A DNA stretch of 61,175 nucleotides, filler included, from Circinaria calcarea (taxonomy: Eukaryota): the NCBI GenBank assembly GCA_051942165.1. It is 17 parts of 17 records of this genome, joined end to end, with 100 filler letters (N's around TTAATTAATTAA, not from the genome) between each part and the next. Parts side by side here need not be neighbours in the genome. Positions count along the whole stretch, not along the records: positions 21,677 to 25,181 come from JAVECS010002786.1; 16 more parts are not named here. One strand, written 5' to 3'. Of this stretch, positions 1,020 through 38,220 are shown piece after piece; position 1 is the first letter of the stretch; each line of letters begins with the position of its first letter. The notes under the pieces are model-generated. The model had not been told where the DNA came from. It searched no databases and saw only the letters and a program-made list of their open reading frames with translations. The position numbers and the translations under genes are program-made.

Positions 1020-1784
1020 CGTCGTTGGTGCTGAAAGGAGCGTAATCGATTGAAAGCAACAGAGGAAATGACTGGAGCGATCGAGAGCAACGCTTCTTGC
1101 TGAAGCAGATTCAAGCTACAAGCAAACGTTCTTCCCCGCAGTGAGGGTAGGGGGAGAGAGACAGGTACGGAAGAATAAAAGGCGAGAGCGGCTTTACAGA
1201 GATGGCGGAGGAGGCTGACGAAGTAAGAAGAAGGAAGGAGGAAGGGAAAGATAATGGGGCTTGCCGGGGAAAAGCGTCCTTTCCCCGTTGGTCAGTGCCC
1301 TAAGGCGCTTCCACGAAATCGCATGGGGAGCCGATGCCACTCACTTCTGACCTTATCGGACTGTTCCCGGTCCCTAAGATACATATGTACCTTGCTCAGT
1401 CAACTTACCCATGCAACGTCCGTGAGGAATTATCAACAAAGGACAAAGGGAATTGGTAGGGAGACAGGTCGGCGGGGGGCTATACGAGATGGATTGGAAA
1501 TCTCTTCTTCACTCTCTAGAAGGTTTATCTAGGCTCATCAATGCGGGATCATGCGGGTGCTTGGGAAAGTATTCGTACATGTACCTTAAAAATCATATGC
1601 CCAACGTGAAGCAAATCGTTGGTTACATGAGATCTTAGGCCATACAGATAGTCTGCTCTCGCCCTGTATCCCATGTCCCATGGTGTAAGATGATATGGGT
1701 TATCAGATGGCGGGAGTGGGTCAACGGTTCATAGGTTCACAGACAAATATTTCGAATTACCCAATCTCATAGTCAATGTCGTTT

Positions 1785-3008
1785 TCATCGCTTGCCGAGT
1801 GCCTCTTGTGTAGTTCTGGTGGGCATGCAGCTATGGCCATGTCAGCCGTGTCACGCAGAGTTCTGCGGATGAACACACTAAACTGGGTCTACTTCTTCAA
1901 GGCCCGGGTACCCCAGAAGACTTAGACCGGCAATGCCAAACAAGGTATGGAAGACATCGACCATGTCCCCCGGCCTGTCGGCGATCCCGCCTTCCTTTGG
2001 GTCCTACTCTCAAAGTCAGTGATCGTCTCCTTCGTCTGATGGGAAGATCTGACCTGACACTCCAAGATGAATTTCGTCAACTTATCGCCATCTATCCAGT
2101 GGAGCCTGCGGATCATAGCAAGGCTGCTAAGCACCCACCAGCTGTAGCAAACGTCCTCCAGCTTCTCCGGTCTTCCGTTGAGCCCGCCACTCTTCAATTG
2201 TCTCTCGCTGAGCCAGCCAGCCAGCCGGTCTCTGTTAACGAGGTCCAGTCTCCCAGCAATAGCCAGAGCACCCACACAGGTGAACACTTGCCCAGCGTGT
2301 GACTCGGCACCAGGGCTTACTCCGTATCCACCATCGAAATTAGCGCAGGACTGGATGTGCGCAACCGCTTTAGGTATATCGATGAGGTACGTAAGGCGCA
2401 GCAAAGACAGGGCATTCAGAGCCCCGTACAGAAAGCGAGTATCTGTCTCTCCCCACTCATCGCCCGCGAATGTGCCCGTTTCTCGATCTTGTAGACTGGC
2501 AATAACTTTCGGAGTCAACAGGGGACGATGATGGAGCCCGCAGGGCAGTACTAACACTCGCCGACCCGCGTCTTCCCTCCTTGACCACGCAGATCAAGCT
2601 CATCTACGGCCGCTATCGTCACTAGGATCTGCACCGCACTCACGGTATAGAGCATGTGGGGGTCATGCCCCGGAGCAGCACCGAAACCCCCTGTCTGATG
2701 CTGACACGAGAGTACAAAACCTATAGTCTCCTCTCGTGGCAGGGCATCCGGACGACCAAGCAAATGCAGAGCGGTAAGGCCCCAGTACAGTCCGTTCAGT
2801 CGTAAATGTTCGGTCAGCCAGTATTCGAGTTCGTCTCGCCTCTATCGGGTAGTGAGCACTGCAAATGACTCGACCTGCACCAAACGATTGAGCGTACAGT
2901 GTCGAGACTCTGTATATACCGTACATGCTGCTCCCCTTGCAACTTGAGTTCCTCCGGCAGCTCCTCGCCCGCAGCACCGCCTCTCCCCGGACCTGATACC
3001 AGCGACAT
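1785..3008 (-). CDS. BET2: Rab geranylgeranyltransferase (type II) beta subunit, copy 1; 5 exons
   Basis: Spliced reading: ...[22 protein letters not shown]...[16 protein letters not shown]...[13 protein letters not shown]...[12 protein letters not shown]...[18 protein letters not shown]...[16 protein letters not shown]...CMP. These are prenyltransferase repeats. Introns at about 2897-2842, 2557-2510, 2056-2006 and 1880-1832. Confidence 0.95.
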
Positions 3009-3476
3009 GGAGGCTTCGACGGATACTTCTATCTCCCTACATGTATGTAGCGTGGCTGACTCCCGGCGGAAAGATGCATGCCAAGGCTTTGGTTGGGGCA
3101 AGGCTGTACCTTTACTGCCGCTGGTCGACACTGTCAGCCAGTTAGATAGGAGCAAATAACGGATCTACAAAGCTCCGATGGCACGTGCAATCGCTTGGGT
3201 GGCTAGATCCAGATCAGCTAGTTTCAGGACGATCAAACCCTTGTCTTCGCACGGAAGGAAGAGGCTAAAGACGGTCGGCCGAATGAGATGGGGTGCCTGC
3301 ATAAGCTCGTCGCTGTCGTAATCCCCCAGCTCATCGGCCAAGGACCGGGGCATGGAATGGACAGTAGCAAGTAGCAATCCGTACAGAGTAGTCGCTGGCA
3401 ATAAGGAAGACCCAAAGCTGCTAAACGGCGCCCAAAGCCAGAAATTAATAATCTGGTATCGAACCCAATACGTCCC

Positions 3477-5666: not shown

Positions 5667-6441
5667 CTAAGGCCTGCGAGCCAAAGCAATGCAGCTAAAA
5701 CGAAGGCTCTCTCCTCCTTCATCCGCGTTCAACTTGATGATCCTCTTGATGCCTATGTCAAGCGCTCGCGGACTGAGAACGTCCTCGTCGTCAGCAAGAC
5801 TTCCTCTCTCCAGAGGACCCTTCCTCGACCCTTCAAGCTCCCAGAGCTTCCCACCGCTCTTGACAAAACTCACAAAATGCCCACCATCACGCTCACTCGT
5901 CGGATCCGCATAGCTGTCGCCGGCCTGCTCGACCGACTTGTGAGCAAGTTCGAATGGCTCGCTGTTGTACAGCATTTCGGCGCGTTTGGTCATATCCAGC
6001 GGTATGGCGAGGCTTCGTATTGCCGCGAGATCGGAATCACGCTTGATAAAGTCGACGGCCGGACCGTTGATCAAGCTATGGAGCAGACCGATCGAGCCGC
6101 AGGCGTGGCCGATGGTCTGCTTGAACCAGATGACCGGCTCGTCAGGGCCGGAGCCAGTGTAGGGTTCTTTGTTAGCGTCTTCGGCCTTGCGACTTTGATC
6201 CCAAGCTGGTGTAAGTGGAATGATAACCAGCAGAGCCAGGGCGGGTCGAGGGATATGTGCGAGTTGTTCGGGTTCATCCAGGGAATAGACGTCGTAGAAT
6301 TGGAGCTCGGACGATAGACCCAACTTCGTTGCCAATTGACTCATTACATCGGGGTTATTCTCTGCCATTTGTTATTCAAAGATAAGTAGTCCATGAGGGC
6401 TTAGGTCCCTTACCAAGCATTACCCATGTCTTTTTTTCCAT
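5667..6441 (-). CDS. Ubiquitin C-terminal hydrolase (peptidase C12, UCH-L3/Yuh1-like); 2 exons
   Basis: MEKKTWVML, intron 6413-6362, ENNPDVM...FYDVYSLD...FKQTIGHACGSIGLLH...GHFVSFV...LWELEGSRKGP...FSCIAL. Catalytic Cys and His are present. The exact start is uncertain. Confidence 0.9.
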
Positions 6442-14306: not shown

Positions 14307-14456
14307 GTAAGACCTCTACGCCGTCAACCCATGCCCCCAACCCAGTCCTTAAACCCNNNNNNNNNNNNNNNNNNNNNNNNNNNNNNNNNNNNNNNNNNNN
14401 TTAATTAATTAANNNNNNNNNNNNNNNNNNNNNNNNNNNNNNNNNNNNNNNNNNNN

Positions 14457-17193
14457 ACAAGCACGCAAAGTAGGATTGCCCAAGCATGTGATCGGTGTCG
14501 CAGTAAGAAGATACGGTGTGACGGCATCACGCCATGCTGCTCGCAATGCACAGCTGTCGGCTTCGAGTGCAAGACAAGCGATAAGTTGAGCAGAAGAGCC
14601 TTCCCCCGGGGATACACAGAATCGTTGGAAGAGAGAGTGCGTGCTCTGGAAGGAGAAGTCAAGGAATTGAAAGATCTCCTCGACGAGAAGGATGAGAAGA
14701 TCGATATCATATCCCGGGTCAATTCCAACTCCCTTCCAAAACGGCCATATGTTCCCTTCTCGCCTGATCCATCGATTGACTCGAAGCCATGCGCGGTACC
14801 GAAAGAGGACATCTTTAGGATGCAGCAGTCCCCGGTTCTGATGGACAATAAGAAGGCAGATTCTTATTTCGTGGGCACATCTAGTAGCAGAGCTTTCGTT
14901 GGTAAGGTGCATCACACAAACCTACTTTACAGATTCTCTAAACCTATTCCAGACGCCGTGAAACGCAAGATCCAAGAAAGCGGAAGACCGTGTGCAAACT
15001 TCAACATTGACGCCCTTTCCCCTACATCCCATGCGTCTACTGCTACTGGAAACACGATGCTAGATAACCCTCTATTAGCAAGCGGAGTGCCACCACGCCT
15101 CATCTCCGACCAGCTCATGAACATCTTCTTCCAGGAATGGGCACCCATGTACCCTGTGCTGCATCGACCGACCTTCCTCAAGCTATATGCAGATTATACT
15201 GCGGATCCAAATAGCATTAGTAATTCACACGCTATAGCACAGCTCCACTTGGTATTTGGCATTGCCGCAATGTCTTCGGAAGTGAGTATCCCGAATAATC
15301 TAGATATCGAAATAGACTAACTTACGGAAAGAGTAATAAAGAGATTGTAGCCGGCTCTGAGAGTCACTGGAGAGCAGCATTAGATTCTGTCGTGTCCGAT
15401 AATTCATTATCCACCCTACAATGTTTGGTGTTGGCGCAGATCTATTGCACCTGTAAGGCAGACTATGACAGCCTTGGACGGTATAAAGGCGTTGCTGTTT
15501 CTCTTGCATACCGTTTGGGGCTTCACCAGAGTCAGAAACGGTTCTCCCTTGGTGCTTTGAACCGTGAAACGAGGAAGAAGGTGTTTTGGTCCTTGTACAC
15601 TGTTGATTGGTTAGTCATGTCCCCTACACCGAATAAGTCCTACCATTGACATCTCTCAGCTTTTCAGCTGCTCTGTTAGGTTTGCCAACCCTTTTGAAAG
15701 ACAATGATATTCAAACCGAGTATCCTTCTGATGTCGACGATGAGAACGTGACGGAGCGTGGATTTCAGCCGACTCTCCCGGGCGAATCAACAAGGCTCTC
15801 AAGCGGTCTTGCCCTTTTCCGGCTTGCTCGTATCATGTCTCAAGTACTCCTCGAAATCTATCCATCAACCTCATCTCATAATCTATCTCTCCACCAGCTA
15901 TCTACTTTGAGCGATAAGCTGGACGCTTGGCGGGATGAGCTTGCACCTCATCTTCGTTTACAGTTCGTGCAAGATAAGCCTAGCACCAACATTGTTAGCA
16001 GCAGGTCGCCTCTTCTGGTATGGGAATCTAGCCCGCATTTGCTATGGTTATTGCTAAGCTTTGGATAGTCTCTCGCTTTCTATTTTATCCGCACCCTCAT
16101 TCACCGCCCCGCTGTGACGTCCAGCCTTGGAGCAAAAGCCTCATCCTCCAGTGTTGCTCTTGCTGACTCTAATAAACACATTATACAGATTGTTCAGCTT
16201 CTCGAGGAACGGCGTATGAGCTTTTCAATATGCCTTAATAAGAATGAAATCCTGCTATTGGCTGGCCTCAGTCTCGTCCTCCAGAGACTTGATGTCAAAC
16301 AAGAAGGAAAGATCATGCATGATAACCAAAGGCTTGTCTCATCGGTTATCAACAACATGGACCGCAACGCCTTTTCAGGCGCCCGTGCCTTTAAGAAGAT
16401 TGCGTCCTCTACAGTTGCTAATGAGCAATTCGAGAAGCCCCTTTCTCCAGCAGCTAGCTCTCGCACGTCACAAAGAAATTCAACTACTAGCTCACTTGGG
16501 CCGCAAGCTATCTCGAAATTTGCAAGGCAACAAATACAAGCAGTCACTTCACGCTTCTCCTACGGTACTTCTCAATTTACAGAGCATGGAATGTCAAATA
16601 GTAGACGCTCTACCACGCCATCTCTGCCTCTTGGCCTTACGCTTCATTCCCGTAATTATAGTCAAGCAAGCATCTCATCCGCTCGATCCGAACCCATATA
16701 TCGACCAGGTCGCCCGACTTTGCAGACCGCACAAACACAGATCACAAGTACCTATCTTGATGGACCTGATCTCGACTATCTCTCTTTCGGCAATAATGAA
16801 TCCCTTCTAGCACTTAACCACATTGCCGACGTCCAAACCCCTGAAGCTTCTTCTGAATGGGAGAGCCTCTTCGGCTTCATTGATGCCAGCGAGACCTTCC
16901 CTGAAGATAGCAACAATTCATCCTGCGATCTCAACACCCCCCCTCCCACCGAAACATTTCCCCACTTGTCCCAGAGTTCTCAGACTGCAGGCACCCATGA
17001 AAAGTCTCCGGAAATATGGGCTATCGTCGATGAGCCAAGTAAGCAGTCTGCATTCGCGCCAAGTGATTTCAGTCTGCCGGAAGAGGGCTCGACTAGCGGT
17101 GAAGATCTCAGTGCTTGCGAGCTCGGAATGGAGTATAGGGCAATTATGATGCCGAGTTTCGAGGGACTGGAAGGGCAACATGTGCCCTACTAA
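14457..17193 (+). CDS. facB: Zn(II)2Cys6 transcription factor FacB/Acu-15 (Cat8/Sip4 family; acetate utilisation), 5' truncated
   Basis: [58 protein letters not shown] is the FacB/Cat8 signature. A fungal-specific TF domain follows ([31 protein letters not shown]). Four introns at about 14902, 15282, 15610 and 16018. Confidence 0.93.
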
Positions 17194-20188: not shown

Positions 20189-22925
20189 CCAAGTAGCGGC
20201 AAGTCTTAGCAGCGACTCCACTGCCGGGCCCTACCCGCCTCTCTACACCATTTAGAAGATAGGTAGGAATCCAAGCCTCAATCTAGTAGAATACTATTCC
20301 GACCCGGCCCGTCCCGCCCGGGGCTTTCAAGATGCGATATGTATTTTCGCCTGATGCTGCATGCGGATACCATAGGGGGGTTTTTCAAAATTAGAAAAAC
20401 GCTAAAGTTTTACATGGAACCGAGGTATTAGGAAATTTATCCCCCCTTCCAACTTCCCCCCCGGGTACAAACCGGAAGCTCGTTGTCCATTCATAAAAGC
20501 CCATAATTAATAGCGCTAGACCGCCCAATTCGGGGCTTCTTCGCAGCCTACAAAGGACGTGCAGAATCTCCCAAATCGTTGCGGATTTGCAGAGTCGATG
20601 GCATGGGATGCGAGTAGTTTAGGTAGGGTTTTCAAAGAAGCTCGGTGATAACAGCGCCCCCGGTTTTTGAAGAGCGCTATGGTATCGAAGATCTACGGAT
20701 TGAGAGATAGGGCGGCGATAGGAGAGTGGGTATTTGGGTTGCGATGGCGCGTGTAGCGCGACCGATTTCACTATTCGTAGTTGGCAATAGTAGCGCTGGA
20801 GGAGTTGAAGAGCGAGGGCTAGGTTTTGCTTCGGTCTCGCTGGTGGAGAGGAGATGATTCGAGGTTGGGGGGGGGGAAGGGGACATTATGGCGGTGGTGG
20901 GAGAAACCCGTAGAAGCGGAATAGTTTTATAAAAACTACAGTTTTAAATGCTGGGACTTGGATAACTCATATTCACTTTTCGTCCTGGATGATTGGAGTG
21001 TTTGGGTAGATTCGATGCTAGTGAAAAACAACACAGCAGAGTGGTGTAAGATTTATTAAATGAGTATCTGAGATCCAAAAGACGTGGAGACGCGGTTGAG
21101 AAGAGGAAATGAAAATCGAGTACACATGATTTACCCCCATACCTGTAGGTAAATACTGTGGCGTAAGCTTATACATAGTAATGACCCATACCTGTGGACT
21201 TTGATCCTGTGTTGGGAAAAACTGCTATGAATCGGTTTTTGGATTTAGAAAAAGACTGGTCAAGAAGAATGGATAGATAGGTCAAGAGTCTGAAAATGGA
21301 AGAAATCATGCTAGGGTCAGGGATGTAAATGGTGCAATATTTTTTCGATCAGTATCCAGCCAACAGATGTACTTGGGGCATGAAACAGTAGGAAGTCACT
21401 GTACATTTTTTTTCTGTCCTCTTACCTTTCGCTTCATATACATTCACGACCGATGCAAAAGACTTCGAAGGGACCCAGCCCTTCAATAGTGCAGCCGGTA
21501 CAGTGCGCACTCCCGAGTCAGAGGGTGCTGCATTGTATTGATAATGCTGGTCTTGCACTGACAGTACAGCCCTAGGNNNNNNNNNNNNNNNNNNNNNNNN
21601 NNNNNNNNNNNNNNNNNNNNTTAATTAATTAANNNNNNNNNNNNNNNNNNNNNNNNNNNNNNNNNNNNNNNNNNNNTATTTATCCCGGGGCTAATTTTTT
21701 TTTTGGTTTAATATATATTATAGTGCTAGCGTTATAATATATATGATTACACGAATGCTAAATACATGGCCCGTAGGGCTGCGCCGGGCCGACATGCCTC
21801 CGTGTGTAGGGAAGCCCAGGGCTGATCCGTAATAATTCCTATATAGGCGGAATTTATGAAAAGTCTATGGATTTGTGTGGCAGAAAACAATACTTTTATA
21901 TATACTACGCGAAGGCGCTATTACTTCTTATATTAAGCTCTCGTGTCCATACTCGCGAGTTCACGTGCATAGTGCCAAGTTCGACATGTTAATATGAACT
22001 GCTTGTGGTTTATTTATTCTATTAAGAGGAAGAACAATGTGGGCATAGCCCTGGACCCCTATGGACCCTGAATGCTTCATGCGAGCCGTGTGTGCGCTAC
22101 CATAATAGCTCAAATCGAAAAGCACGGGGCTAAAGCTGGGTTTTTGACGCTAGCATAACTTGACAGCTGCTCCCTAACTTTAAATATGGACTCCTGGTAC
22201 CTTAACAAGATCGCCTCAACTCGAGCTATTCTACAAGCCAAACCAATAAGCAGTTTTCCACTCCCGCTAACGTCCGTGACATCCACTGCCCGACTACTTG
22301 TCCTCTCTCAACACTCAGAGAGGAGACATCGGCGATGACGAACACTGTTAGGCCGCTGTCAATAACGGCGAGTCTCATGGAAGCCGCATTGGGAAGAAAG
22401 ATCAGCAAGCAGGGCCACTGCGCATGATGATGCTTGGCATCTTGGTTGGTGGGACAGGCCCCGTGTTGAAATCACCAAAGCCCAGTGCGGGCCCATTGCG
22501 CCTGGTGTGGGTCATCGACGTTGGCTGCATATCGTCTTTATAACTCGAGTAAAACTTTGATGCGACCTTGCTTGACTGTAACACAGGACACAGGGCCGTG
22601 GCAGAAAAGCTACGGGCTTAATTCGTTACTGGAGCCTGAGGATGCAGCCCACTACGGAATATTGTAGCCTATCTGGTTCTGTCGTCGTCAATGCCTGAAA
22701 AGATTCGAATCGGAGATAGCTCCATAAGAGTAATAGAGCTCTTTTATACAATCAGGTCCGCTCCAGACCTTCGGCTGCGGACCGATAGCTACGATAATGT
22801 CGATAAAAGGGAAAGAGGCGTATACACGAGCTGCCGTTAAGCAATATTCGGTTCATTTCCAGCTGCTTGTAGCGTGGTCAGGATTGATGGAAGATTTATA
22901 TTTAAACAGCCCGTTTCCCTCTCAA

Positions 22926-22933
22926 TATATAAA
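22926..22933 (+). promoter_or_regulatory. Putative TATA box of the DUF3494 gene
   Basis: TATATAAA about 140 bp upstream of ATG 23067, followed by a pyrimidine-rich leader and a CA-rich microsatellite (~23021-23058). Confidence 0.5.
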
Positions 22934-23066
22934 TTCCCATCCAGCTTCAATAACCAGACACTCCGGTCAAGCAGCTTCCTCTACATCTCTCAATTTGTGT
23001 TATATCCATCTTCCCTGACCAACACATACATACACATACACACACACACGCACACACGAATAGAAG

Positions 23067-23735
23067 ATGTATCCCAAGACTCTCGCTGCGGTGCTCCTGT
23101 TCGCTTTGATGAGCGAAGTCATCGCCATCACCATTGGCTCAGCCAGGAACTTTGGTGTCTGCGGTGGCCAAACCGTTACCTCGACGGGTAACACCGTCAT
23201 CATTGGCTCCGTCGGCACCTCGCCAGGTACCTCCATCACCGGCTTTCCACCCGGCGTTGCCACCTCCCTTAACGCCGGCAACGTCGCAGCCTTCAACTGC
23301 ATCGCGGACATCTCGACCGCGTATAGAGCGTGCAAAGACGCCATCGCTCCAACCGACCGGACGGGCAGGCCGCTGGATGGTGCGGTACTCTTACCAGGAG
23401 CGTACAAATACGACACCACGGCAGCCCTAAACGCTGGCCAGACTCTCACGTTCAACGCGCTCGGCATCTCGACGGCCCAGTTCACTGTTAACGTCGGCAC
23501 CCAGCTCGACCTTTTCAGCAACAGCAAGATCCTGCTCAGCGGCGGCGCAAAGGCCTGCAGCGTCTTCTTCTGCGCTGGGACCTCCGTCGTTATAGGCGCC
23601 AACGCCGGCGTTAATGCTACCGTCATTGCGTTGCAGAGCATCAGCGTCGCCGATGCCATAACCAATAAGGGTGGCCTGTATGGCATCAATGCCGCCGTTA
23701 CCATGATCAACGATAAGATCATCTCCTGTGCGTAA
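23067..23735 (+). CDS. Secreted DUF3494 ice-binding-like protein (IBP-1 fold), intronless, 222 aa
   Basis: Signal-peptide-like N-terminus (MYPKTLAAVLLFALMSEVIA), then IGSARNFGV.GGQTVTSTGNTVIIGSVGTSPGTSITGFPPG, L.PGAYK, ILLSGGAKACSVFF and VIALQSIS...GGLYGINAAVTM. These match the DUF3494 beta-solenoid motifs. Confidence 0.9.
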   Translation: MYPKTLAAVLLFALMSEVIAITIGSARNFGVCGGQTVTSTGNTVIIGSVGTSPGTSITGFPPGVATSLNAGNVAAFNCIADISTAYRACKDAIAPTDRTGRPLDGAVLLPGAYKYDTTAALNAGQTLTFNALGISTAQFTVNVGTQLDLFSNSKILLSGGAKACSVFFCAGTSVVIGANAGVNATVIALQSISVADAITNKGGLYGINAAVTMINDKIISCA

Positions 23736-25994
23736 GCGTTGGATGTTTTGAGCAGTTGGTTTGCGCGGAGACATGTAGGTACGATGACAAGTGGATGGGA
23801 TGGCTTGGGACGGGATGGAATCGGAACGTTTATCCCTGAGGGGGATAAGCTGGCTAGCTTGCTACTTTTTGATTTTATTATTGATTGTATATTCTATTGC
23901 TCATGATAAAAGTTCGGCGGTCTCTGAGATTTCATTTAAAGCCAGTGCAATATATCTGAACGCTCGATTTATATATTCATGATTGTTTTCATCGCGGTAT
24001 AATGTCCATCCGCCCCTATTTCGAACAGACCCCCTTCCACAATATGCCAGAAGTATATCTCAGCTATGATGATTCGCCACGGGTTCTCGCATACTGCACA
24101 CAATATTAAAAACACCCGGATTTAAGCATGACTCTCGAATTGATCTTCGGAAATTTTACACTACACAAAAAAGGCCAATAAGTCGCTCACTCCACGACCC
24201 TATTCCATCCCATCCCCTCCGCAAAGAACATTGCATCTTCGCTTCCAGTGCACCCCCACCCACTCGTAGAAAACCCAGCTGGACACGAACCAAGTCAAAC
24301 CCCACGTTCCCACTGTCAGGAAAACTTCTCATAAGCTGCCGCAATGGCCAGCTCCCAGAAAACAGGAGGGGGGAGAAAACAAGGACGGGGAAACCACCAG
24401 GCCACTTAAAGCAGCCCCTGATGGGATTGAACCCAATCTTGGTGACATTCCCGCCTGAACATCGTTGCGCGCACACGCGGTTTCTGTCCCTTTCGCGAGA
24501 TTTGCTCCGACTAACGCCGTGGCGTGCCATTCTCGTAACGGCTTTTAGCTGAATGGGGCATAATCAACTTTTTCTGTCGGGAAGGCTGTGGCTAAACCGT
24601 TCCGATCGTGGTAATGGCCGTTGATCTGGAACATCTCTCGCACTATACAGGGGCTTGGCGCGTGCTGATTCGGCGTGTTCTAGGGGGGTTGGACTAGTGA
24701 ATTGGTGGCGTGTTTCTTTATGTTCTGCACCCGGGAGAAAAGATTCATTACCTACTCGAATGTGTGGGAAGTGGTTACGGACGGGGGGTGGCGCGGTTAT
24801 CAACGGCCGAGGTAGACTGCCTCATGCAGGGCCTCAATCCCGCCACTCGGGCCCGTGGTCGGAATCCGGGTACTCCACCTCAACCCCAAATTCTGCTGTC
24901 GGATTTTTTCTATTATTTATATACCTGGCCGTTATGCCCTATAAAAATCATCTATCGTCGAATATCGAGGCTGGGGCAGAAATGGGGTGGCGGAAACGCT
25001 AAGCCTAATTCGGCTATCGTAATTTTAAACCCTCCGGAAACGGCAAGAACAACATGTTTTAATATTTCCCTTACTTAATTTCAGTCGCGAAGATTTTATA
25101 AAATATATAATTTTATAAAAATATAATTTAATATTATATATTTACGGATTCTTATTACCGAGTAATTTTAAATTATTAATANNNNNNNNNNNNNNNNNNN
25201 NNNNNNNNNNNNNNNNNNNNNNNNNTTAATTAATTAANNNNNNNNNNNNNNNNNNNNNNNNNNNNNNNNNNNNNNNNNNNNCCCCCCCCCCCCCCCCCCG
25301 ACCACGAGGCTGGATAAGAATCGCGTTGATATACGAGGGTCGGTGACTGCCAACTTGGGCGGGAGTTATATTACCGCGTGGGAACTCCACGTCCAGGCCC
25401 GGTAAGGGTAGGACAGCACGACCCTGCAGACTATGCGCGAAGGGGGCAAGTTGTTATTATCCTACGACGAAAACAGGGTTCTGCTGCGGTGCAGCGGCGG
25501 CGAGGGCGGCTTTACACGACTATATCGATAATATATACTCGAGCGCGCATTATATAGGCGAGCACGCATCGCTAGGGGACTCACATGATGAAATGATTGA
25601 TGACTTGAAGAAAGGAAGAAAGAAAAACGGGAGCGTCGTCGTACAAAATAGCTATTGGACCGAGCATCGGCTATCACGTGCCGCCGGTGCGGGACCGCGG
25701 TTACGCTCGTACGGAATAAGCTATCTTCACGCCTACAGCCTACAGTTTCTATAGCGGATAGTGGACAGCGAAAGGAAAAGCCGGCGTGGGGGAGGAAAGG
25801 AAGAAGAGGGAGGGGAAAGAAAGCGTACGCGGGTCTAACTTCTCCACCTGGCTCTATCCCTCAAAGGTATCATCGTACGTGTAAAGGTAGAGGTATACAG
25901 AATAGCACCAATAAAATACATTAGGTAATTAATAATAATTAAACCTAATCACGCGCTGAACAGGAGGGTTTTCATGTTCCTTATATTAGGCTAT

Positions 25995-29492: not shown

Positions 29493-32060
29493 CTAGACTG
29501 TAGAAGGCCCTGGTGATAGCGTAGGCGCCCCTAAATCGTTACAGACTTTTTCCAACCTCTTGCACTCCACGTCCCCGTATTCCTTTACAAAGGCTTGCAC
29601 AACTTCTCCAGCGTCAGTGAGCATGATACTTCCCACCCCGGCTCTAATTCTTAGATGCTCCGCAGTACGTAATGTTTGCATGGCGATTTCAAAAATGTAC
29701 GGCCCTAGAAACGGAAGCTGCGACTCATTTTCGAGGTATTCCGGTCCACTGTACTTGACGAATTTCTCGTGGAGGGCGGTGCGGAGTTGACGTAATAGCG
29801 ACCAACAATGTTGGTGCATCCTGAAATAGTCAAAGAGCAGCTTTGGCATTTCTCGAGTTAGAGACCCTTTTAGTGCTTCGAGTAGCTGAAGAGGAGTAAG
29901 TTTGTGGGACTCATTCCACTGCCGTCGTAGTGGTTTACTGTGAGAAGTACGTGGCTGGTTGTCTTGTGCTTGCTGACTGAGCAGTACCTCAACGTTGTGC
30001 ATAGTCAGAGCGGTCGAACCTTTGTTACAGTAACGATCTCGGAATAATTCTGCTATCGGCGATGATTCTTCAAGAGCTCTTGGGCCGCTTTTTGAAGCTA
30101 TCGGCTTCGTTCGCCTTCTGTTGCGTGCAAATTGTTCTGGAGAGTAGCCCAGCATCAAGCAGACCTGCTTGAAGCTATCCTCTATGGTTTTCGGTGCACC
30201 GCCAATAAAGACTCGCTCTGGCGTGTGCATATCGATCACCAGGTCCATGTCGGGCCACAAGTCAATCGGCGACTCCTTCTGCCTCAGTCCGTTGTATAGA
30301 TGCGCCGTGTATACGACAGAGCCCCATGCGTTGACAAGATCCACACCAGTCTCTTGTAGCTTAAGAACAACATGGAATGCCAAGACCCCACATAGTATCG
30401 GGTGGCGTTTCAACAAGTAGTAAGCCTCACTAGGATCTTCCAAACTGCCCCAAGCGACTGTCACTTTCTTCTTCTTTGCAAGGAGAGCATCTTCCAAAAT
30501 CCATTCATTGATACTTTTGCAGATATTGCGGAGGTAGAAATCATTCTCCTTTGGCCAAGTATCTGGTGCCTTGGTAGACCGAGAGAATGAAAGGTAGTCT
30601 TGTAAAGTATCTTTTGCACCAGTACCAATATCATAGAGATTATCAAAACCTCGGTCGACATCTCCACGCAGCAGATGGTGAATATCCAAGAAAATCTGTG
30701 TAGCAAACACAAGCCAGACCGAAATTTGTTTGCTCGAAACCATATTTCGTAGGCCGCGAGTTATCTCGTCTTCTGCAGGTAGATCGGCGCGAAGTTTAGC
30801 CAACAAGCAAAATTCAGGCATAATCTCCATCAAAATGATCAAATCCTCGCAATATCTCTGTGGAGCAGCCATGTTTGACCGATCCGCTCGGGGATTATAC
30901 ACACCAAAATGACCTCGCTTCATAACGGGGACTTCGTTATCGTGTAGAACATCACAGAACGAGTCTAAGAGATTATGTGACGGAGTGAATATCCACTCGG
31001 CCATGTTTTCTTCAAGCTCAACCTCATCGCTGAGTCCTTTAGGGTCCTGAAATCGTCGTACATTCTCCAGAATAACTTTAAGTGTCTCATCGTAGCCTCT
31101 GCAAGCAGGGTAGGATGCGAGGAAATCCTCCTCAGCGCGTTGGGCCAGTTCAAGCGCTGTATTCGTAGTGACCGATGCAGTGATAAGATCCACCTTCCTT
31201 TCACGATAATCAGACCACAGTTGGAGTATGCTGCCACGGATTCGATGCAGATCGTCAAGAAAACAAAAAATGGCAAACAGGGCATCATCTGCAGCGTCTC
31301 CGACTGCAATGGAAGATTCGAGCTCGTAAACTTTCTCAGGAGAAGGTTTTCCACTTAACGGAGAAGTGGTAGCTTTTATCGGCTCAGAAAAGTCTTGTTC
31401 TTGCATATCTTCTACGTCCAATAGTCCAAACATGTTTTCCAACGGTTCATAATTAACGCTTTTCGAGGAGGTCAAGTTGTCGGGAAGAGACTGCGGCTCC
31501 GACCCTGGAACGCTCGAGGCAGCCAACGACTCATCATGGGGACTTAGGGTAAGCAGTACCTCCTGGAGTAGGTCGATAAAATACGAGTGTTGATTGTTTA
31601 ATTGTGACTCGCGAGGATCGTCCGAGAACTGCTTCTTGAACCATGCTGCGCAACGTTTCCGGGCAGAGACCGCGCGAAGACCAAGCCGAATGATATTTGA
31701 AGGAACCTGTATAGCCATTTTCGTATTACTGGCAATGGCTCGCGCTTGGGGAAGAAGATCTTTGAGTGCAACAACATGCTTTGATGTGGGCGAGGCGATT
31801 GGAGGAATTTGCTGTGATACTGGCTTTCCTTGGGCGATGGCCGCCCTTATAGCTTCCATTGCCGCCCTCTTTGCCTCAATTCTGGCCTTGCCTTTTAGGC
31901 GCCGAGTCGGTGGCGCAGCTGCTTTATCCAGGGCAGGGCCAGACTGGGGGGAAACTGTGGTATATCCGCATTTTTCAGCAGTCTCCGAAAGCCACTTGAT
32001 GAACTTGGCTGTATCATGCTTGTAGCGTCTATAACTGCTGGCTAGAAAATCCGGTAACAT
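29493..32060 (-). CDS. DUF6604-family protein, intronless, 855 aa
   Basis: N-terminus MLPDFLASSYRRYKHDTAKFIKWL, plus RAVSARKRCAAWF, NNQHSYFIDLL and HLYNGLRQ...WPDMD, as recalled for fungal DUF6604 proteins. Confidence 0.8.
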   Translation of the reverse strand: MLPDFLASSYRRYKHDTAKFIKWLSETAEKCGYTTVSPQSGPALDKAAAPPTRRLKGKARIEAKRAAMEAIRAAIAQGKPVSQQIPPIASPTSKHVVALKDLLPQARAIASNTKMAIQVPSNIIRLGLRAVSARKRCAAWFKKQFSDDPRESQLNNQHSYFIDLLQEVLLTLSPHDESLAASSVPGSEPQSLPDNLTSSKSVNYEPLENMFGLLDVEDMQEQDFSEPIKATTSPLSGKPSPEKVYELESSIAVGDAADDALFAIFCFLDDLHRIRGSILQLWSDYRERKVDLITASVTTNTALELAQRAEEDFLASYPACRGYDETLKVILENVRRFQDPKGLSDEVELEENMAEWIFTPSHNLLDSFCDVLHDNEVPVMKRGHFGVYNPRADRSNMAAPQRYCEDLIILMEIMPEFCLLAKLRADLPAEDEITRGLRNMVSSKQISVWLVFATQIFLDIHHLLRGDVDRGFDNLYDIGTGAKDTLQDYLSFSRSTKAPDTWPKENDFYLRNICKSINEWILEDALLAKKKKVTVAWGSLEDPSEAYYLLKRHPILCGVLAFHVVLKLQETGVDLVNAWGSVVYTAHLYNGLRQKESPIDLWPDMDLVIDMHTPERVFIGGAPKTIEDSFKQVCLMLGYSPEQFARNRRRTKPIASKSGPRALEESSPIAELFRDRYCNKGSTALTMHNVEVLLSQQAQDNQPRTSHSKPLRRQWNESHKLTPLQLLEALKGSLTREMPKLLFDYFRMHQHCWSLLRQLRTALHEKFVKYSGPEYLENESQLPFLGPYIFEIAMQTLRTAEHLRIRAGVGSIMLTDAGEVVQAFVKEYGDVECKRLEKVCNDLGAPTLSPGPSTV

Positions 32061-32686
32061 ACTGACTGTTTTCCAAAGCTGTCAAGCTACTGAGTCACTA
32101 TGGCATTGATAAAGGAGCGAGAGAATAACTGCTGCTACAACTGCGTGTGTATGGTCTGCTATGCTGCATGCAATGCAGCGAGAGAATCTATCTATGTATG
32201 TGTGGGCGTAGGCGGAATAACGTTCGCCCGAGGATCTAACCCAAAAGGTTTGACACTTGACTACCGCCTTATGTCCGTTTTTCTAGGCTTCCATTACATG
32301 TACACCCCTTTAACCTACACGTACACCCCAAAAATCATAGTTGTACACCCCCCGGATTAGGTAATAATCGTCGTCATGTTATATNNNNNNNNNNNNNNNN
32401 NNNNNNNNNNNNNNNNNNNNNNNNNNNNTTAATTAATTAANNNNNNNNNNNNNNNNNNNNNNNNNNNNNNNNNNNNNNNNNNNNCCTTTCCCCCTTTCCC
32501 CCTTTCCCCCTTACAATCCCTTTTCCTCTCCCCAATCCCATCGTCGATACCTGCACCCCTATACTGGTAGGTTTTCCTGGTGCTTGTGGCGATCACTGGC
32601 CAGTTTTCGGAGAAGGTCCACAGTATGTTCGGGAGCAATTACTCATTGAACGAAGGCTTAAGGTTCAGTTTCTGTCGCTGAGGTGA

Positions 32687-36085: not shown

Positions 36086-38220
36086 CCCTAAGATACATAT
36101 GTACCTTGCTCAGTCAACTTACTCAGGCAACGTCCGTGAGGAATTATCAACAGAGGACGAAGGGAATTGGTAGAGAGGCAGGTCGGCGGGAGGCTATACG
36201 AGATAGATTGGATATCTCTTCTTCAATCTCTAGAAGGTTTATCTAGGCTCATCAATGCGGGATCATGCCGATGCTTGGGAAAGTATTCGTACATGTACCT
36301 TAAAAATCATATGCCCAACGTGAAGCAGATCGTTGATTACATGAGATCTTAGGCCACACAGATAGTCTGCTCTCGCCTTGTATCCCATGTCCCATGGTGT
36401 AAGATGATATGGGTTATCAGATGGCGGGAGTGGGTCAACGGTTCATAGGTTCACAGACAAATGTTTCGAATTACCCAATCTCATAGTCAATGTCGATTTC
36501 ATCGCTTGCCGAGTGCCTCTTGTGTAGTTCTGGTGGGCATACAGCTATGGCCATGTCAGCCGTGTCACGCAGAGTTCTGCGGATGAACACACTAAACTGG
36601 GTCTACTTCTTCAAGGCCCGGATACCCCAGAAGACTTAGACCGGCAATGCCAAACAAGGTATGGAAGACATCGACCATGTCCCCTGGCCTGTCGGCGATC
36701 CCCCCTTCCTTTGGGTCCTACTTTCAAAGTCAGCAATCGTCTCCTTCGTCTGATGGGAAGATCTGACCTGGCACTCCAAGATGAATTTCGTCAACTTATC
36801 GCCATCTATCCAGTGGAGCCTGCGAATCATAGCAAGGCTGCTAAGCACCCACCAGCTGTAACAAACGTCCTCCAGCTTCTCCGGTCTTCCATTGAGCCCG
36901 CCACTCTTCAACTGTCTCTCACTGAGCCAGCCAGCCAGCCGGTCTCTGTCAACGAGGTCCAGTCTCCCAGCAATAGCCAGAGCTCCCACACAGGTGAACA
37001 CTTGCCCAGCGTGTGACTCGGCACCAGGGCTTACTCCGTATCCACCATCGAAATTAGCGCAGGACTGGACGTGTGCAACTGCTTTAGGTATATCGATGAG
37101 GGACGTAAGGCGCAGTAAAGACAGGGCATTCAGAGCCCCGTACAGAAAGCGAGTATCTGTCTCTCCCCACTCATCGCCCGCGAATGTGCCCGTCTCTCGG
37201 TCTTGTAGACTGGCAATAACTTTCGGAGTCAACAGGGGACGATGATGGAGCCCGCAGGGCGGTACTAACACTCGCCGACCCGCGTCTTCCCTCCTTGACC
37301 ACGCAGATCAAGCTCATCTACGGCCGCTATCGTCACTAGGATCTGCACCGCACTCACGGTATAGAGCATGTGGGGGTCATGCCCCGGAGCAGCACCGAAC
37401 CCCCCTGTCTGATGCTGACACGAGAGTACGAAACTTATAGTCTCCTCTCGTGGCAGGGCATCCGGACGACCAAGCAGATGCAGAGCGGTAAGGCCCCAGT
37501 AAAGTCCGTTCAGTCGTAAATGTTCGGTCAGCCAGTATTCGAGTTCGTCTCGCCTCTATCGGGTAGTGAGCATTGCAAATGACTCGACCTGCACCAAACG
37601 ATTGAGCGTACAGTGTCGAGACTCTGTATATACCGTACATGCTGCTCCCCTTGCAACTTGAGTTCATCCGGCAGCTCCTCGCCGGCAGCACCGCCTCTCC
37701 CCGGACCTGATACCAGCGACATGGAGGCTTCGATGGATACTTCTATCTCCCTACATGCATGTAGCGTGGCTGACTCCCGGCGGAAAGATGCATGCCAAGG
37801 CTTTGGTTGGAGCAAGGCTGTACCTTCACTGCCGCTGGTCGACACTGTCAGCCAGTTAGATAGGAGCAAACAACGGATCTACCAAGCTCCGATGGCACGT
37901 GTAATCTCTTGGGTGGCTAGATCCAGATCAGCTTAGTTTCCGGACGATCGAACCTTGTCTTCGCACGGAGGGAAGAGGCTAAAGATGGTCGGCCGAATGA
38001 GATGGGGTGCCTGCATAAGCTCGTCGCTGTCGTAATCCCCCAGCTCATCGGCCAAGGACCAAGGACCGGGCATGGACAGTAGCAAGTATACAGAGTAGTC
38101 GCCGGCAATAAGGAAGACCCGAAGCCAGGGGGGAATGAATAGACGGGGGCAAGTGCAAGTGCAACTGCCAGAAATTGATACGGAGTAATCGGGTGTCGAA
38201 CCCAATACCTCCCACCCCCC
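36086..38220 (+). repeat. Near-identical second copy of region 1372-~3480
   Basis: Colinear at a constant offset of 34714 with no indels over 1372-~3218. About 57 substitutions counted by eye in about 1.85 kb (~97% identity). Indels appear only further upstream of BET2. Confidence 0.95.
36499..37722 (-). CDS. BET2: Rab geranylgeranyltransferase beta subunit, copy 2
   Basis: Same exon structure as 1785-3008 and an intact frame, with few amino-acid changes (E/D, G/S, Y/S, I/V, N/D). Confidence 0.95.

Follow-up and report, generated by a model that had tools for sequence, protein, structure and literature searches.

Lichens tolerate freezing while hydrated, and it is on this account that DUF3494 proteins of their fungal partners, the mycobionts, are of interest. 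A stretch of DNA from the Circinaria calcarea assembly (61,175 bases in full, hereafter the window) carries one gene of this family, and the locus raises two questions: whether the gene was recently acquired from bacteria, as an original prediction made from the sequence had proposed, and what its secreted product might do in a lichen. The explanation favoured here, held with moderate confidence, is that the gene encodes a member of a secreted lichen-fungal DUF3494 subfamily which would have arisen by inheritance and duplication within fungi, and which would combine three disulfides with an ice-adsorbing surface termed the B-face. A tempting story of horizontal transfer is thereby corrected.

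The DUF3494 family and its fold are already established, as is the idea that its genes have been transferred into eukaryotes. What appears new is the lichen-fungal subfamily itself, the putative occurrence within the fold of natural helix-stapling disulfides, and the wide occurrence of DUF3494 among non-ice ascomycetes; no paper describing DUF3494 proteins of lichen mycobionts was found in the limited literature collection consulted. According to a 2024 review (PMC11645318), the eukaryotes bearing DUF3494 all come from icy habitats, a statement with which the temperate ascomycetes among the named carriers stand in contrast. The naturally co-varying cysteine pairs would, for their part, provide a ready-made test of DUF3494 fold stabilisation, which matters in practice for additives used in cryopreservation (PMC10853241).

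The protein, its gene and its relatives

The coding sequence (CDS) at 23067..23735 on the plus strand, stop codon included, is uninterrupted and specifies a protein of 222 amino acids (aa) with a single PF11999 (DUF3494) domain, as had been predicted. Comparison with the PF11999 profile returned a match over aa 32–218 that covered profile positions 2–207 of 208 and scored 109.5 bits (cut-off 28.7; E 2.4e-31); no other open reading frame (ORF) among the 867 of at least 40 aa in the window encodes a DUF3494 domain. An AlphaFold model for which a 108-row alignment served as input (predicted local distance difference test, pLDDT, 94.6; predicted template modelling score, pTM, 0.89) contained about 20 short strands and one long alpha-helix, aa 73–91 (23283..23339, plus strand; assigned by DSSP), bearing both C78 and C89. 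Foldseek comparison of the model with the Protein Data Bank (PDB) gave 31 matches at E ≤ 0.001, and those listed were without exception ice-binding or antifreeze proteins of the DUF3494 family: 6EIO came first (template modelling score, TM, 0.87; root-mean-square deviation 1.3; 37% identity), and the Antarctomyces protein 7BWX matched with TM 0.86/0.94. Profile score and fold match thus confirm that the protein is a member of the DUF3494/PF11999 family.

The amino terminus consists of MYPK, a hydrophobic core and V-I-A preceding I21. Judged by rule alone (hydrophobicity and the -3/-1 rule), aa 1–20 (23067..23126, plus strand) form a predicted signal peptide cleaved after V-I-A; pLDDT over these residues was 58–70, and solved homologues align from aa 19–21 onward. 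The mature beta-solenoid domain would then comprise aa 21–222 (23127..23732, plus strand) and includes the only N-glycosylation sequon, N183-A-T185 (23613..23621, plus strand), the NAT of which is kept in relatives P0001–P0008. The six cysteines (32, 78, 89, 164, 169 and 221) were located as claimed, and alignment of the family bore out the alteration of its consensus VFWQVGSS to VFFCAGTS. A second motif fared differently, since SPGTSITGFPPG had been taken as bacterial in style: TSITGFPPG is present, with G59 and F60 invariant and P61, P62 and G63 at least 90% conserved over 108 sequences, but it is found family-wide and is therefore not diagnostic of bacteria.

Upstream of the gene, a TATA-like element, TATATAAAT, was read directly at 22926..22934 (plus strand), 133–141 nt 5' of the ATG, where it could serve as the predicted TATA box, and a CA-rich, microsatellite-like leader with A at -3 lies just 5' of the ATG (23022..23058, plus strand). 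The preference for C- or G-ending codons was also evident, GC content at third codon positions (GC3) being 0.74 and that of the whole CDS 0.587, against 0.48–0.49 in the flanks.

The surroundings of the gene have to be read in the light of the make-up of the window, which consists of 17 contigs of 3,498–3,516 bp arranged in descending size and separated by 32 N44 runs paired round a 12-mer (N44-TTAATTAATTAA-N44; for example 21577–21676 and 25182–25281), so that features are not to be read across these spacers. The gene lies on contig 7 (21677..25181; 3505 bp), as defined by the N-run table and the sequence. It is the sole recognisable gene of that contig, in agreement with the prediction once the latter is applied to this one contig: the eight other ORFs tried had no Pfam match at the curated cut-off, and the contig yielded no Rfam family, no tRNA and no meaningful repeats. 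The description of the surroundings as AT-rich holds for the terminal 100 nt or so at either end, namely the left end (21677..21776; GC 0.30) and the very AT-rich right end (25082..25181; GC 0.15), the latter being the probable cause of the assembly break; it does not hold for the flanks overall, the GC content of which is ordinary over 1 kb on either side. TpA/ApT ratios in the same terminal 100 nt were 1.06 (left) and 1.04 (right), as against 0.79 elsewhere.

A word-indexed search that covered 5.8 billion proteins gave 29 matches, with eight full-length collinear relatives at 60–91% identity (Psora testacea 79%) and the next match at 41%; an exhaustive HMMER search gave 6,422 relatives at E ≤ 0.001. 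Carriers of DUF3494 identified by the profile searches included lichen-forming fungi (Trapelia, Lignoscripta, Acarospora, Piccolia, Vezdaea, Peltigera and Pleopsidium), rock and Antarctic black fungi (Cryomyces, Friedmanniomyces and Meristemomyces) and temperate ascomycetes (Didymella, Boeremia, Paraphaeosphaeria and Trichoderma). Single lichen-fungus genomes may hold several DUF3494 paralogues of differing cysteine type, as in Acarospora aff. strigata (P0216 and P0322) and Trapelia coarctata (P0207 and P0356), and the proteins of temperate Dothideomycetes, many of which carry the domain, often bear Ser/Thr-rich C-terminal tails.

Prokaryotes were scanned at one genome per species (185,579 species) with a nine-row alignment as the query, and the best 80 of the 556 confirmed matches were 34–43% identical to the window protein. 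Two quick maximum likelihood trees were then available for comparison, the first of 87 rows (with 32 drawn from the 80 prokaryote loci) and the second of 126 rows (with 20 drawn from the 80) and with the six cysteine columns masked; both were unrooted, support values (marked *) were those of the SH-like approximate likelihood ratio test (SH-aLRT) from a short search, and AnpIBP, EfcIBP and basidiomycete sequences were left out. In both trees the window protein and its eight close relatives formed a nine-row clade (100*), the stem of which is long (0.64). In the second tree this clade lay inside a prokaryote-free clade of 53 rows (97*), in which the named rows beside that of the window are Psora, Vezdaea and Peltigera (3/53), and 29 of 29 prokaryote rows fell in a separate 43-row clade (98*); the first tree was similar. 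Those subfamily members that have species names so far are all lichen mycobionts.

Likely cysteine pairs and the candidate ice-binding face

The pairing of the six cysteines was drawn from their co-occurrence at 32/78/89/164/169/C-terminus in 366 proteins. Written in that order, with a dash for each cysteine lacking, the patterns counted were ---C-C (176 rows), ------ (107), CCCCCC (32), --CCCC (17), -----C (12), ---C-- (9), CC-C-C (6) and --C--- (4), the rarest being CCC-C-, --CC-C and CCC--- with one row each. In an earlier set of 360 rows the four extra cysteines had been all-or-none and were present in 12/360; relatives with partial patterns came with the later search, and it was their addition that resolved the pairing. 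The pairs so indicated are C32–C78, C89–C169 and C164–C221, which lends substance to the earlier suggestion that the protein is possibly disulfide-stabilised.

All of the codons concerned lie on the plus strand. Those of Cys32 (23160..23162) and its putative partner Cys78 (23298..23300) are linked by the six CC-C-C and the 17 --CCCC rows, co-occurrence likewise suggesting a link between Cys89 (23331..23333) and Cys169 (23571..23573), while the widely conserved Cys164 (23556..23558) would pair with the C-terminal cysteine, here Cys221 (23727..23729), in keeping with the 176/366 rows of the ---C-C pattern. Named members of the cysteine-rich fungal group other than those of the nine-row clade are Vezdaea acicularis, Peltigera leucophlebia, Pleopsidium flavum and Acarospora aff. 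strigata. When placed on the tree, the 32–78 pair was jointly lost in one 17-row clade that includes Peltigera, the 89–169 pair at a minimum of four places, and the 164–C-terminus pair in one row. A pair was broken in one row of the cysteine-rich fungal group, the partial P0333 (CCC---), and, outside that group, five rows of the prokaryote-containing clade have Cys89 without Cys169. Since related rows share their patterns by descent, the counts represent few independent events rather than 366.

The proposed pairing appears to agree with the geometry of the AnpIBP structure, in which the coils run in the order loop-beta1-beta6-beta5-beta4-beta3-beta2 and the A-face is covered by the helix (PMC7277481). 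C32 aligns with L14 (beta1) and C169 with I150 (beta4), both on the A-face of AnpIBP and three coils, or about 14.4 Å, apart, and each cysteine stands three residues before a B-face segment in the 7BWX alignment; C78 and C89 are separated by 11 helix residues, or about 16.5 Å, on the same side of the helix. Taken together, C32–C78 and C89–C169 would fasten the long helix onto the body of the solenoid. In the sequence alignment, neither 6EIO nor 7BWX has a cysteine at any of the six positions.

The B-face itself was mapped by alignment rather than from coordinates, the seven ice-binding segments of AnpIBP being transferred through the 7BWX alignment. They correspond to T55-S-I-T58 (loop), Q35-T-V-T-S-T40 (beta1), A209-A-V-T-M-I214 (beta6), Q190-S-I-S-V-A195 (beta5), T172-S-V-V-I-G177 (beta4), T145-Q-L-D-L-F150 (beta3) and T117-T-A-A-L-N122 (beta2). 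Outward-facing residues were A, G, S or T in 19/27 cases, and in 84% over the 53-row clade; the figure reported for AnpIBP is 70% (PMC7277481). Among the nine orthologues the B-face was also the most conserved surface, with a mean entropy of 0.35 and 25/40 positions invariant, as compared with mean entropies of 0.57 for the A-face, 0.64 for the C-face, 0.77 for the helix and 0.59 overall. Equally low entropy arose in 17/10,000 draws of random position sets matched in size to the whole B-face, and in 354/10,000 draws of sets matched to its outward positions. Ice binding by this face is plausible.

Proposed mechanism and rival explanations

The mechanism envisaged is as follows. A gene inherited and duplicated within fungi, and not recently imported, would give rise to a single-domain DUF3494 protein, about 202 aa long when mature, secreted by a lichen-forming ascomycete into the hyphal wall or thallus matrix, with glycosylation probable at the single conserved sequon N183-A-T. 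The protein forms a triangular right-handed beta-solenoid with its long helix lying on the A-face; C32–C78 and C89–C169 would pin this helix to coils beta1 and beta4, and C164–C221 would tie down the C-terminus. The flat Thr/Ser/Ala-rich B-face could then adsorb to ice, with inhibition of recrystallisation and shaping of extracellular ice as the expected outcome over the frequent freeze–thaw cycles of the hydrated lichen, and the extra disulfides would preserve the fold through drying and heating. Beyond the fold, the conservation and the cysteine co-variation, this is a mechanism that we infer. A wider proposal, that lichen fungi possess an ice-binder subfamily of their own, with one or two helix–body disulfides, whose members survive the drying and heating of the thallus, and that this subfamily is the basis of the 'antifreeze proteins' of lichens, is put forward more tentatively.

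A number of observations weigh against this explanation. The equivalent of AnpIBP T156, one of two residues of that protein whose mutation reduced activity (PMC7277481), is Val175, and D148, F150 and three Gln also occur on the mapped B-face. DUF3494 proteins are found in named mesophilic ascomycetes, for example Didymella, Boeremia and Trichoderma, and many bacteria from habitats that do not freeze have them too (PMC11645318), so that the fold is no proof of ice binding; nor, given those ascomycetes, is the domain alone a sign of a cold habitat. Of the suggestion that the host is a freeze-exposed fungus, what survives is its plausibility, since the closest named relatives are lichen-forming, and what does not is the use of the domain as an indicator of cold. 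With respect to origin, none of the 14 other long ORFs in the window (0.42–0.61) reaches the GC3 of 0.74; of the 17 contigs, contig 7 correlates least well with the others in trinucleotide composition (r 0.23, as against 0.45–0.86) and has the second highest dinucleotide distance (104; range 29–115); and the approximately unbiased (AU) test does not reject a placement of the nine-row clade beside the 43-row prokaryote-containing clade (delta lnL 13.97, p 0.366), with the consequence that phylogeny alone is not decisive.

The strongest rival, which we consider possible but rather doubtful, accepts the same protein and ancestry and assigns to the conserved flat face a target other than ice, the protein acting as a secreted adhesion or symbiosis factor, in line with the neofunctionalised effector that the original prediction had offered as an alternative; mineral or rock surfaces, wall polysaccharide, the air–water interface and the photobiont surface are all candidate targets. 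The residues noted above on the mapped face (Val opposite T156, D148 and F150) would suit such a role, as would the paralogues in the non-ice ascomycetes Didymella, Boeremia, Paraphaeosphaeria and Trichoderma, and Raymond, in 2024, suggests that the DUF3494 proteins of non-freezing bacteria bind other surfaces (PMC11645318). Traits typical of effectors could point in the same direction: the protein is small (fewer than 300 aa) and of secreted type, its signal being assigned by rule, and has six cysteines in 202 aa, the named members of the 53-row clade are all lichen fungi, and the gene occupies a short contig ending in AT-rich sequence, although in terms of an effector compartment only the last 100 nt or so of each contig end are AT-rich. 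Set against a non-ice role, the A/G/S/T richness seen at proven ice-binding sites is retained on this face (in both the window protein and the 53-row clade), the closest solved structures are those of active ice binders, and lichens freeze while hydrated (PMC13342294).

The favoured account of fungal inheritance has also to be weighed against that of the original prediction, a recent transfer from bacteria, or against its variant, that the contig derives from a bacterium or some other non-mycobiont member of the sample. Either is very improbable. In their favour are the lack of an intron, the outlying GC3, the deviant composition of the contig and the prokaryote-side placement left standing by the AU test, together with the precedent of AnpIBP, which is reported as bacterially derived (PMC7277481). 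Furthermore, Trichoderma viride P0218 and P0062 nested among Chloroflexota in both trees (92 then 99*; inside the 98* clade), which makes them a candidate for a separate bacterium-to-fungus transfer, and suggests that such transfers into fungi probably happen.

By way of contrast, the best trees nest the window gene in a fungal clade, and the identities point the same way: relatives at 60–91%, the lichen fungus Psora testacea among them, are followed in the 5.8-billion-protein set by a gap from 60% to 41%, and the top prokaryote identity was 43% (best 80 of 556 matches). The four derived cysteines played no part in building the tree. They are present, wholly or in pairs, in all members of the nine-row clade and in the other rows of the 53-row clade and are shared only with that fungal clade, none of the 80 prokaryote loci (best 80 of 556) having a cysteine at 32, 78 or 169; as characters they give independent support to the fungal placement. 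The TATA-like element and the A at -3 provide a eukaryote-like context. As to composition, contig 7 trimmed of its AT-rich ends and CDS had a dinucleotide distance of 81, inside the range of the other contigs, and its trinucleotide deviation may be explained by low coding density, this being the least coding-dense of the 17. On the strength of the trees and of the cysteine characters kept out of them, recent transfer of the gene from bacteria thus appears very unlikely, and the claim of recent acquisition is not upheld. In the distant past, the DUF3494 genes of all ascomycetes may have come from bacteria. Among the prokaryotes, the planctomycete Tundrisphaera lichenicola, whose species name hints at an origin from lichen, encodes a DUF3494 protein (locus L025, 1501–2076) that is 40% identical to that of the window and not specially close to it in the trees.

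A last and speculative alternative to an ice-restraining role, that aggregates of the protein promote ice as part of the stable lichen ice nucleators, is scarcely credible: those nucleators are highly efficient, exceptionally stable and membrane-independent, with a genetic basis described as unknown (PMC12978214), and stability would likewise be expected of a secreted ice-binding fold stapled by disulfides, but this is a single domain of about 200 aa with no repeat expansion or large templating surface, the fungal nucleators identified are InaZ-like and from Mortierellaceae, including a culture from Peltigera, and the same source makes no mention of DUF3494.

The rest of the window and known systems

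An antisense ORF of 240 aa (23000–23722, minus strand) overlaps the DUF3494 gene; it has no Pfam match and most likely arises merely because the sense frame is so rich in GC3. Elsewhere in the window, an 862-aa open frame for a DUF6604 protein (29493–32081, minus strand), a fragment of a Zn2Cys6 transcription factor with a fungal transcription factor domain (14409–15320, plus strand) and a ubiquitin C-terminal hydrolase (5667–6371, minus strand), all on other contigs, are consistent with an ascomycete assembly. Contigs 1 and 11 can be aligned over 2,049 bases (1372–3418 and 36086–38125; 96.1% identity), a stretch that includes an ORF with a prenyltransferase domain (1922–2593 and 36636–37307); the two copies could be haplotypes, could stem from a recent duplication, or could belong to two closely related genomes that were assembled together. 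The run of about 20 C that opens contig 8 (25282–25301) is probably an assembly or sequencing end artefact.

Among characterised members of the family with which the window protein can be compared, the basidiomycete proteins TisAFP (Typhula; 3VN3/5B5H) and LeIBP (Leucosporidium; 3UYU) are likewise secreted fungal DUF3494 proteins of the same fold (TM 0.74–0.82) but belong to another subgroup, with 20–23% identity and sequence E values of about 1e-6 to 1e-7. The nIBP of Nostoc, including the cyanobionts of Peltigera, provides an instance of DUF3494 in another partner of the lichen; it is cyanobacterial, and is likened here by description (PMC7783341). EfcIBP (6EIO), a bacterial protein from an Antarctic consortium, was the top match both in sequence (E 4.2e-29) and in fold, and is similarly a short single-domain solenoid with a side helix, but it has none of the six cysteines, and the window protein falls in a fungal clade.

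AnpIBP from Antarctomyces psychrotrophicus (7BWX/7BWY) is secreted, fungal and of the same size and fold. Its ice-binding loop, T-S-I-T, is identical to that of the window protein, and its S153 aligns with T172. It differs in having 33–34% identity, none of the six cysteines and a threonine, T156, opposite V175, and in its ancestry, given that AnpIBP is regarded as a bacterial transfer (PMC7277481) and the window gene sits in a deep fungal clade.

A comparison that bears on the putative disulfides is that with FfIBP and its engineered disulfide variants (4NU2, 8X0Z, 8X1L and others), which have the same fold (TM ~0.8). FfIBP has a capping head region, whereas the window protein aligns best with homologues that have no head. 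One of the FfIBP designs, CC2, also joined the body to the long helix with the aim of increasing stability; the helix–body disulfide cut the melting temperature (Tm) by about 8.3 °C, and a disulfide in the cap raised it by 5 °C (PMC10853241). In FfIBP, therefore, the engineered helix–body bond was destabilising, whereas in the lichen-fungal proteins two natural helix–body pairs, as suggested by co-variation, appear to have been conserved over the clade.

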